DNA of 64,000 nt from Myxococcales bacterium (GTDB lineage Bacteria; Myxococcota; Myxococcia; Myxococcales; UBA5297), in assembly GCA_050288705.1 (NCBI GenBank), contig JBNKEI010000093.1:1460-65459 (forward strand), given 5' to 3'. The notes below the pieces were generated by a model. It had not been told where the DNA came from and did no database searches. It was given only the letters and a program-made list of their open reading frames with translations. The position numbers and the translations under genes were made by a program. This document shows, piece after piece, positions 45,315 through 45,610 of the stretch (position 1 is its first letter; every line of letters begins with the position of its first letter).

Positions 45315-45346
45315 AAAAAAAGAAGCCGCCGAGTTTCCTCGACGGC
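45315..45346 (-). terminator. Orphan rho-independent terminator on the minus strand
   Basis: On the minus strand: GCCGUCGAG (45346-45338), loop GAAA, CUCGGCGGC (45333-45325), then UUCUUUUUUU (45324-45315). No annotated minus-strand gene lies upstream of it before tilS. Confidence 0.7.
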
Positions 45347-45451
45347 TCCGTGGACCCAGAGGGGGAGGGGGGGACCCCTGGGCCCAACAACGAACTTAAT
45401 GTTACGGCCTACGACTCTATACTTGGCCGCCTAATTTTGGTACTACTCCTG
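45315..45451 (-). ncRNA. Candidate ~135-nt C-tract small RNA
   Basis: TTGGTATAGAAT is on the minus strand at 45469-45458. C7-T-C5 tract at 45373-45361, preceded by GGGGT. The terminator is at 45346-45315. No minus-strand ORF of 60 aa or more is present. Confidence 0.35.
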
Positions 45452-45610
45452 AATATCATTCTATACCAAAAACGGTTAAAACTTAAAACCACCTGGCGAC
45501 AACCATCTTGTCGACCACTTCATTCCGTTGCACCGTAACGTCTATTTTCCATTTATAACATAGTTTACAATTTGCGCCACATCAAAAATTTACAACCTCA
45601 CTGAAAAAAT

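Follow-up and report, generated by a model that had tools for sequence, protein, structure and literature searches.

Introduction

CcsR1-4 (the 'cuckoo' RNAs of Rhodobacter) and RsaE/RoxS of Firmicutes are stress-linked small RNAs (sRNAs) that carry CCUCC or UCCC motifs in unpaired loops, have many targets and act in Hfq-independent settings. The CcsR RNAs require RpoHI/HII, are processed from a 3' untranslated region and occur in repeats; for RsaE, which carries two UCCC motifs, the dependence is on SrrAB/ResDE. A different group, the enterobacterial MicA, RybB and MicL, is driven by sigmaE and forms the repressor arm of a stress regulon; these RNAs are Hfq-dependent, have 5'-end seeds that are not C-rich, and share the promoter GGAACTT-N16-TCAAA. 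The 6C RNA (B11) has hairpin loops with runs of at least six C residues, which bind G-rich sites in mRNAs with no RNA chaperone involved (PMC6486639), and sX13 from Xanthomonas uses C-rich loops to bind G-rich regions of mRNAs without Hfq (PMC3771888). Here we describe a locus in a stretch of 64,000 nucleotides (nt), referred to below as the window, from contig JBNKEI010000093.1 of a Myxococcales bacterium (assembly GCA_050288705.1). Sequence comparison strongly supports the view that an orphan intrinsic terminator in the spacer between a Ser/Thr protein kinase gene and tilS marks an independent sRNA gene on the minus strand, with a C-rich tract as its functional part.

Among bacteria, myxobacteria are the textbook example of a multicellular, predatory way of life, and Pxr of Myxococcus is the one sRNA of this group that has been studied in depth. 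The Pxr gene lies downstream of pxrR (Mxan_1078, encoding a sigma-54 enhancer-binding protein), with Mxan_1079 on its other side, and a sigma-54 promoter is predicted for it (PMC5684412); according to a review, it evolved within the Cystobacterineae (PMC8538405). M. xanthus is said to lack Hfq (bioRxiv 10.1101/2025.09.11.675593). For 6C in C. glutamicum, transcription is reported to be driven by SigA/SigB (PMC5014011).

Results

An orphan terminator upstream of tilS

The initial annotation of this DNA had proposed that the kinase-tilS spacer contains an intrinsic terminator reading on the minus strand only, and a terminator scan places it exactly there (Table 1). Its predicted stem comprises 12 pairs, eight of which are G-C, and is followed by a T7 tail. 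As the annotation had also noted, there is no minus-strand gene upstream: the plus strand carries tilS and ftsH, and the minus-strand kinase gene is located downstream. The terminator is therefore an orphan. The promoter-like box TTGGTATAGAAT, the C7-T-C5 tract and the CGGCC/GGCCG hairpin were all found in the places indicated, the hairpin being part of the minimum-free-energy fold. Read along the minus strand, the locus consists of TTGGTATAGAAT, approximately 70 nt containing the 5' hairpin SL1, the C-loop hairpin P1 (UGGGCCCAGGGG-UCCCCCCCUCCC-CCUCUGGGUCCA), a single C, GGAGCCGUCGAG-GAAA-CUCGGCGGCUUC, and U7. The 137-nt RNA is predicted to form three hairpins with a single C-rich loop (-54.9 kcal/mol, z=-3.0), and none of 200 shuffled sequences folded as well. 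Compared with these statistics from within the window, the comparison with relatives is the decisive part of the evidence.

The annotation had left the conservation of the region in relatives to be checked. Among 11 loci chosen by TilS similarity, without reference to the RNA, nine contain the RNA core. The TilS proteins of six relatives, taken from a large protein collection, are 90% (L082), 48% (L083), 47% (L085), 44% (L086 and L087, both named 'Myxococcales bacterium') and 41% (L089) identical to TilS of the window. All six loci have a 43-nt core, GUUGGGCCCAGGGGUC7-8UC5UCUGGGUCCACGG, upstream of tilS on the opposite strand, and its sequence is the same as in the window except for C7 versus C8. 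The core is also present in Anaeromyxobacter oryzisoli (L211, 87.5 bits) and in another metagenome-assembled genome (L214, 81.2 bits), both of which were reached by TilS searches that started from metagenome members. Across the nine tilS-anchored members P1 is identical apart from C7 versus C8, and the C7/8-U-C5 tract is likewise unchanged in these members, which were found independently of the loop pattern described below. The relatives have a terminator 3' of the core, the stem sequence of which differs between lineages with compensatory changes. Given that the G+C content is 66-70% in the relatives and 46% in the window, the identity of the core reflects selection, not shared composition. 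The 5' hairpin SL1 is lineage-specific; in L082 a C-to-U change converts a C-G pair into U-G and keeps the pairing, and 7 nt of the loop are deleted, which is weak evidence as it comes from two sequences.

The two TilS-selected loci in which no RNA was found within 3 kb (L212 and L213, TilS 39-41% identical) have a GTPase gene abutting tilS, and ftsH is not located downstream. Downstream of the RNA, the window and L082 have the kinase gene, L083-L089 a convergent GTPase gene, and L211 and L214 yet other genes. A scan of GTDB genomes by TilS returned no protein more than 32% identical, and the relatives found were Bacillota, Chloroflexota and others. The window organism looks like a low-G+C, myxobacterial-like lineage that has no close GTDB representative as judged by TilS.

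A family with a covarying hairpin

A metagenome scan that fixed the loop only (GGGGTCCCCCCC-N0-2-TCCCCCTC) and left the stem sequence unspecified matched at least 120 loci. We used 78 unique members to build a covariance model, R1. Among the 120 matches listed, R1 recognises 92 full-length copies and five copies cut by contig ends, which amounts to at least 97 members; the remaining listed matches hold merely the 20-mer. The core of the family consists of three parts: a hairpin of 9-12 base pairs (bp) whose loop is GGGGU-C7/8-U-C5-UC, a short linker, and the intrinsic terminator. The C tract is invariant in all members examined, the metagenome members having been selected by that very pattern.

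The stem provides the independent evidence for a structured RNA. In the 78 unique members, 99.7% of the cells of the C-loop stem are paired, and six of the nine pairs have changes on both sides. Stem variants include GGGCCCA/UGGGUCC, GGGCCUA/UGGGCCC, GAGCCUG/CAGGCUC, GGGCUUG/CGAGCCC, GGAUCCA/UGGGUCC and GAGACUG/CAGUCUC. None of 500 shuffles matched any of the observed covariation measures, and in slid registers the paired fraction drops to 15-54%. RNAalifold independently arrived at the same hairpin and at a terminator helix with many compensatory pairs.

tilS is the divergent neighbour of the RNA in 83 of the 120 listed loci, at a distance of 200-400 nt by tblastn, the rest being mostly too short or non-members, and it is divergent from the RNA in all tilS-anchored members as well. 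Wherever the listed contigs reach that far, ftsH and folP follow tilS, and this order was seen in the tilS-anchored members too. The distance from the loop to the tilS start is about 170-400 nt; in L214, the 5' edge of the R1 match is just 73 nt from the tilS start. There is one RNA copy per locus. A Vulgatibacter-like member (L140, 808-981, plus strand) has tandem C-loop hairpins within a single unit, one with C6 (46.8 bits) and one with C8 (77.9 bits), with two small hairpins between them.

The neighbouring TilS and FtsH proteins belong to clusters named Anaeromyxobacter sp., A. oryzisoli, A. diazotrophicus, Anaeromyxobacteraceae, Myxococcaceae bacterium, Vulgatibacter sp. and Myxococcales bacterium. 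R1 gave no match in 80 tilS loci from Bacillota, Chloroflexota, Atribacterota and others. The family is widespread in Myxococcota and, in the loci covered here, restricted to that phylum. The window locus has the R1 hairpin and loop, a directly following terminator and the divergence from tilS(-ftsH-folP), and its R1 match is the sole significant one in the 64 kb with filters off. It has no box of the extracytoplasmic function (ECF) sigma factor type, which is found in 63 of 84 unique members; this box is frequent, not universal, and its absence is no ground for exclusion.

Table 1. Features of the sRNA locus and of related elements. Coordinates are those of the window, except for the three mobile loop copies, which are given on their own contigs.
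Feature	Coordinates	Strand	Remarks
Promoter-like box TTGGTATAGAAT	45458-45469	-	Exact match; -10-like TAGAAT at 45463-45458
5' hairpin SL1, GCGGCC ... GGCCGU	45404-45430	-	In minimum-free-energy fold; lineage-specific, variable elsewhere
Conserved core, match to R1	45315-45393	-	78.9 bits, E=2.6e-17
C-loop hairpin P1	45351-45386	-	5' arm 45386-45375; loop UCCCCCCCUCCC 45374-45363; 3' arm 45362-45351
C7-U-C5 tract, presumed seed or recognition element	45361-45373	-	C7 45373-45367, then T, C5 45365-45361
Intrinsic terminator	45315-45349	-	Stem 45349-45322, GAAA loop, U7 tail 45321-45315; terminator scan
tilS	45611-46978	+	Open reading frame (ORF); Pfam ATP_bind_3 and TilS_C on identical protein
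ftsH	47061-49070	+	ORF, 3' of tilS
folP	49075-49926	+	ORF, 3' of ftsH
Ser/Thr protein kinase	43353-45200	-	Pkinase E=2.4e-32 and PEGA domain; likely start ATG 45179
Locus A	27674-27759	+	TTGCTATAGAAT 27674-27685; GGTC9 27716-27727; GCTTCTTTTTTT 27748-27759
Mobile loop copy, L215	7086-7106	-	Viral contig: ParB-methyltransferase, terminase-like gene
Mobile loop copy, L101	586-606	+	Mobile-element-like contig: NlpC/P60-like ORF and homologous membrane protein
Mobile loop copy, L099	537-556	-	Mobile-element-like contig with integrase

Predicted promoters and the 5' end

A bipartite motif, GGAA[CT]-N18-GTT, is located upstream of the hairpin in 45 of the 84 unique sequences, compared with 0.2 expected. 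The spacing is N17 in eight further sequences and N19 in ten, other spacings being found in none or one, and the sequence of the spacer is free. The distance from the GTT to the hairpin is 21-46 nt; apart from the motif, the 130-nt upstream region differs from clade to clade. Because the motif equals the ECF sigmaH/sigmaE consensus GGAAT/C-N18-19-GTT, which was established in Corynebacterium and Mycobacterium (PMC10012870), we infer an ECF-type promoter and an RNA of roughly 95-125 nt. Most of the family appears to be transcribed from such an ECF-sigma-type promoter. Other readings of the GGAAUG...GUU motif were rejected: for sigma-54 the GG-to-GC spacing is one base short, for sigma-70 'GTT' alone is conserved where a -35 TTGACA is needed, and most clades do not preserve a GGAAU/GUUCC helix.

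The window's low-G+C lineage has lost the ECF-type box and has kept just a box of the TAGAAT type. This box (TTGGTATAGAAT/C) sits 71 nt before the hairpin in the window and L082; its form is TTGGTATAGAAC in L082 and TTGCAATAGAAT in L083. Many members also have, farther upstream than the ECF-type motif, a good sigma-70-like promoter with TAGAAT as its -10. In distant members these boxes precede the C-loop hairpin by 59-131 nt: by 59-60 nt in L103 and L204, by 84-86 nt in Myxococcaceae-type members, in the form TTGAGA-17-TAGAAT (10/12 matches), and by 131 nt in L083. Judging from these positions, tandem promoters giving long and short isoforms are possible. A generic sigma-70 scan of the window did not call the TTGGTATAGAAT box, the -35 of which is weak. 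TTGGTATAGAAT is the best promoter candidate for the RNA in the window, with a predicted start near 45451, and the combination of this promoter with a length of approximately 135 nt is plausible.

Allowing at most one mismatch, TTGNTATAGAAT occurs seven times in the 64 kb, compared with 1.4 times expected, and none of 100 shuffles reached seven. The boxes are at 7136, 21064, 22740, 27674, 45458, 54792 and 61529. As judged from the sequence, those at 21064, 54792 and 61529 (all minus strand) appear to be at or near gene ends or starts, and two others lie inside genes. The TTGNTATAGAAT-like box is probably the strong promoter form of this low-G+C organism. The box at 21075-21064 (minus strand) heads a gene-poor stretch of approximately 300 nt, in which no terminator was found.

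The RNA matches no known family and is not coding

The annotation had suggested a scan against Rfam for 6S, RsaE/RoxS and other families; no similarity emerged. With Rfam 15 (4227 models) at gathering thresholds, no family matched in the window or in 20 loci that have members, and nothing relevant was found in 20 further loci that match the pattern only. In E-value mode, nothing related was found at E<=10 over 45150-45650, nor at E<=1 in five member loci; a tpke11 hit at E=0.46 covers the terminator alone and was discarded. The RNA is not a 6C RNA (RF01066), as there is no covariance-model match and the window has one C-loop, not two. Neither is it Pxr: it sits between a kinase gene and tilS, and its upstream motif lacks the GG-N10-GC spacing. 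In the searchable literature we found no tilS-linked or myxobacterial C-rich sRNA, although an RNA-seq survey of M. xanthus may include an unnamed orthologue. The family is new in that it is absent from Rfam 15 and from the searchable literature; the kind of element, an sRNA with a C-rich loop that is perhaps controlled by a stress sigma factor, is already known.

Two ORFs overlap the RNA. The plus-strand ORF 45350-45538 (62 codons), which the annotation had wished to see tested as a real conserved gene, is split in L082, the relative with 90% TilS identity, and has no Pfam match. The minus-strand ORF 45238-45390 runs through the terminator and diverges after it, again with no Pfam match. We conclude that the locus is non-coding, because the C7/C8 indel shifts the frame while the flanks are identical, the plus-strand ORF is not kept, and Pfam has no match.

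Tract length and locus A

Among the listed members the tract begins with C7 in 31 and with C8 in 58; C6 was seen in one tandem copy. Taking the stem type as a proxy for lineage, five types (25 members) are uniform in tract length, the commonest type has 38 C8 to 2 C7, and four are mixed. An independent assembly of the window organism also has C7. The idea that the tract is a slippage-prone site is not supported by these data, as C7 versus C8 largely follows stem type and the second assembly agrees with the first.

C runs of seven or more are confined to two loci in the 64 kb, compared with approximately six expected from shuffles. The second of these, locus A (Table 1), lies between a KamA-like radical-SAM gene and ribF and folds into a perfect long hairpin of 69 nt with a 12-bp outer stem, a GGU-C9-ACC loop and a U7 tail (-32.3 kcal/mol, z=-5.9). 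The box, GGT-polyC and tail strings of the sRNA locus do recur there, as the annotation had remarked, but locus A is not a sibling: R1 scores it at 11.2 bits (E=0.5), with a match on the poly-C alone, and we rejected it as a paralogue of the family. No homologue of locus A was found in any fetched locus. We regard locus A as an orphan candidate of its own for a C-loop sRNA. A superficially similar GGUC8 tract lies in a possible stem-loop of the glmM leader of L085 (14340-14480, plus strand; GCUGCUUUGGUCCCCCCCCUCUGCCGCCCC), which has no terminator. In L089, the folP-glmM spacer (14800-15320, minus strand) contains three tandem repeats of approximately 100 nt (GTGCAGCCAGGCCCCCCGCCGCGAGCGAGCGCAGACTTAC).

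The loop on viral and mobile-element-like contigs

Three of the loop matches are found on viral or mobile-element-like contigs (Table 1). In these copies the loop, GGGGUC7-8UC5UC, is closed by a different stem, GCCGCGCC/GGCGCGGC, which is perfectly complementary and located at gene 5' ends. The loop is read in differing frames in two homologous membrane proteins. These features suggest that something recognises the loop itself, and the copies may represent a mobile-element version of the sRNA loop module.

A second conserved element, G8-U-C7-9-U-C5 followed by GGAAAGUA..CUAAC..GGGAUAUGGG..GAUACAUCCG..CCCAGAAAAUUUCCCAGAA, was noticed in L111 (~481), L157 (~882-901), L203 (~1535) and L131 (~1565-1585). 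The DNA around the first three is A+T-rich and crowded with repeated TTGACA/GATTTGTCA boxes; L131 has the core of the element alone, in G+C-rich DNA. The second element has no match in Rfam or in the phage database, and searches of phage and plasmid databases with the window RNA or the L203-type element gave no match.

Target scans

We looked for pairing of the RNA with translation start regions using RNAduplex. The 47 start regions of the window, which are based on crude gene starts, gave a mean duplex energy of -15.4 kcal/mol, compared with -14.9 kcal/mol for the background, and 101 called starts of relatives gave -14.0 compared with -13.8 kcal/mol. In the latter set, the fraction of start regions below the 5th percentile of the background was the 5% expected by chance. 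A search for 9-mers complementary to the loop across all loci returned scattered G-rich matches only. In both the window (45179-45215, minus strand) and L082, the 5' region of the kinase gene contains a conserved UUUUGGGGGCC approximately 14 nt upstream of the likely ATG. This sequence is complementary to the C-loop and too far out for a normal Shine-Dalgarno sequence; it could be a local target site of the sRNA.

Discussion

The annotation's central proposal, an independent minus-strand sRNA gene ending at the orphan terminator, is borne out by conservation, covariation and synteny. Its gene-like anatomy, its taxonomic spread and its absence from Rfam were likewise observed directly. What such a gene would do is a matter of interpretation, and from the features described above we infer transcription itself, the 5' end, the sigma factor, action by base-pairing and the targets. 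The reading we prefer, and hold to be rather probable, is that of a free-standing, trans-acting sRNA gene whose C-loop pairs with G-rich sites and which is linked to stress in most of the family. The gene would extend from 45315 to about 45451 on the minus strand of the window, back-to-back with tilS. In most of the family, an ECF-sigma-type promoter would drive the RNA and make it a stress-induced regulator. The intrinsic terminator would end the RNA, with the covarying 9-12 bp hairpin just before it. The exposed C-loop, with its anti-Shine-Dalgarno core CCUCC, would act as a seed and pair with G-rich stretches of several mRNAs, above all their Shine-Dalgarno regions, without the help of Hfq; such pairing would lower the translation or stability of the target mRNAs. 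By analogy with the C-rich sRNAs mentioned in the Introduction, G-rich ribosome-binding regions are the most likely partners of the seed. For M. xanthus, a TRIC-seq preprint reports hub sRNAs, MXnc1 and one near the 5' end of MXAN_RS24205, that contact Shine-Dalgarno regions in many mRNAs, among them those of mrpC and pilA (bioRxiv 10.1101/2025.09.11.675593).

Several of our results weigh against this interpretation. Both RNAduplex scans placed the start regions close to the background, with no excess of strong pairing among the 101 starts of the relatives. The 21 invariant loop nucleotides exceed what a seed of 6-8 nt needs, and the occurrence of the loop on unrelated stems in phage and mobile contigs suits a loop-recognising factor at least equally well. 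The ECF-type box is missing from the window itself. Finally, pairing in trans leaves the fixed linkage to tilS without an explanation.

Another reading is that a protein or some other trans factor recognises the loop as a module, and that the RNA binds or sequesters this factor instead of using the loop as an mRNA seed. Across a range of 46%-70% G+C, the nine members found through TilS show no variation in the 21-nt loop or in the pairs that close it; the mobile copies place the loop on the GCCGCGCC/GGCGCGGC stem at gene 5' ends without a terminator; the change of reading frame between two homologous genes indicates that it is the nucleotides that are kept; and complementary sites are not enriched at translation starts in the window or its relatives. 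Yet a seed common to many targets would also be expected to be frozen, the search behind the mobile copies had the loop sequence fixed, there is no known candidate protein, and a C-rich apical loop next to a terminator is the classical layout of seed sRNAs in Hfq-less bacteria (PMC6486639, PMC3771888). On balance, we regard factor binding as unlikely, if worth keeping in mind. A more elaborate version is quite speculative and less probable still: the loop could be a portable module that some conserved factor of myxobacteria, protein or G-rich RNA, recognises, and the sRNA would titrate or deliver this factor under the control of an ECF sigma factor. Phages and integrative elements would have copied the loop onto stems of their own at the 5' ends of membrane-protein or nuclease-like genes to plug into or subvert the circuit, and the pairing with tilS-ftsH would be a functional tie to a protein-quality-control or translation-fidelity operon, not inherited gene order.

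The tilS linkage could also point to an element acting in cis, either as a leader or attenuator of the downstream kinase gene, or by controlling tilS-ftsH-folP through promoter interference or antisense overlap. The kinase gene does lie at least 115 nt downstream on the same strand in the window and L082, and the linkage to tilS is nearly universal and close (about 170-400 nt, and 73 nt from the R1 edge in L214). A leader is hard to reconcile with a downstream gene that is not conserved (a GTPase gene in L083-L089, others in L211 and L214) and with a terminator that is predicted to be strong, with a U7 tail. As regards tilS, the RNA is on the opposite strand, and a scan found no plus-strand promoter-like site beyond the RNA in the window. 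We consider a role in cis improbable. A feature of the DNA itself would account for the variable length of the homopolymer (31 C7, 58 C8 and one C6); it could be a slippage-prone poly-G/C tract conferring phase variation, or the control region of tilS could contain a G-quadruplex or i-motif. The tract length largely follows stem type, however, and C7 is also what a second, independent assembly of the organism shows; the stems on either side covary in the manner of RNA helices, G-U pairs included, the terminator fixes the orientation, and the tract is neither inside nor immediately upstream of a gene; this makes a DNA-level function very improbable. The chance that the locus encodes a small protein is close to nil: the plus-strand and minus-strand ORFs both exist mechanically, but the former is split in L082, the latter crosses the terminator, C7 versus C8 shifts the frame, and neither has a Pfam match.

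The significance of the seed-pairing sRNA that we prefer would lie in its range. Its conservation spans Anaeromyxobacter, Myxococcaceae and an uncultured lineage of 46% G+C; this, together with the frozen anti-Shine-Dalgarno-like loop and the apparent ECF promoter, makes the RNA a candidate core post-transcriptional stress regulator. The covariance model now allows the family to be annotated, and the family offers a concrete hypothesis for the M. xanthus hub sRNAs of the RNA interactome. The loop in phage-like contigs hints at cross-talk between host and virus. If the RNA is just another C-rich seed sRNA, the conceptual gain is modest; it would nevertheless give a phylum with poor coverage a new, well-defined family.

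Comparison with known small RNAs

Of the known systems, the 6C RNA of Actinobacteria (RF01066) is similar in being short, highly conserved and phylum-wide, with C-rich loops and a terminator. The tandem C-loops of L140 recall the two-loop architecture of 6C, and L140 is alone in having two. In contrast to 6C, the family described here normally has one C-loop, occurs in Myxococcota and has a fixed synteny with tilS; there is no similarity of sequence or model. Whereas 6C of C. glutamicum is reported to be driven by SigA/SigB, most members here have an ECF-type box. sX13 has three stem-loops with 4C/5C motifs and belongs to Gammaproteobacteria, and no similarity to it appeared in the Rfam scans. 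The likeness to CcsR and RsaE/RoxS lies in the C-rich, anti-Shine-Dalgarno-like loop; these RNAs are not homologous to ours and gave no Rfam match. Compared with the promoter of MicA, RybB and MicL, the box of the family is GGAAY-N18-GTT, and its link to ECF sigma factors is drawn from the motif alone, which is absent in the window. Pxr resembles the present RNA in being a myxobacterial sRNA with three predicted stem-loops, the last of which is more variable in Pxr. Unlike Pxr, the RNA described here adjoins tilS and is more widely spread.

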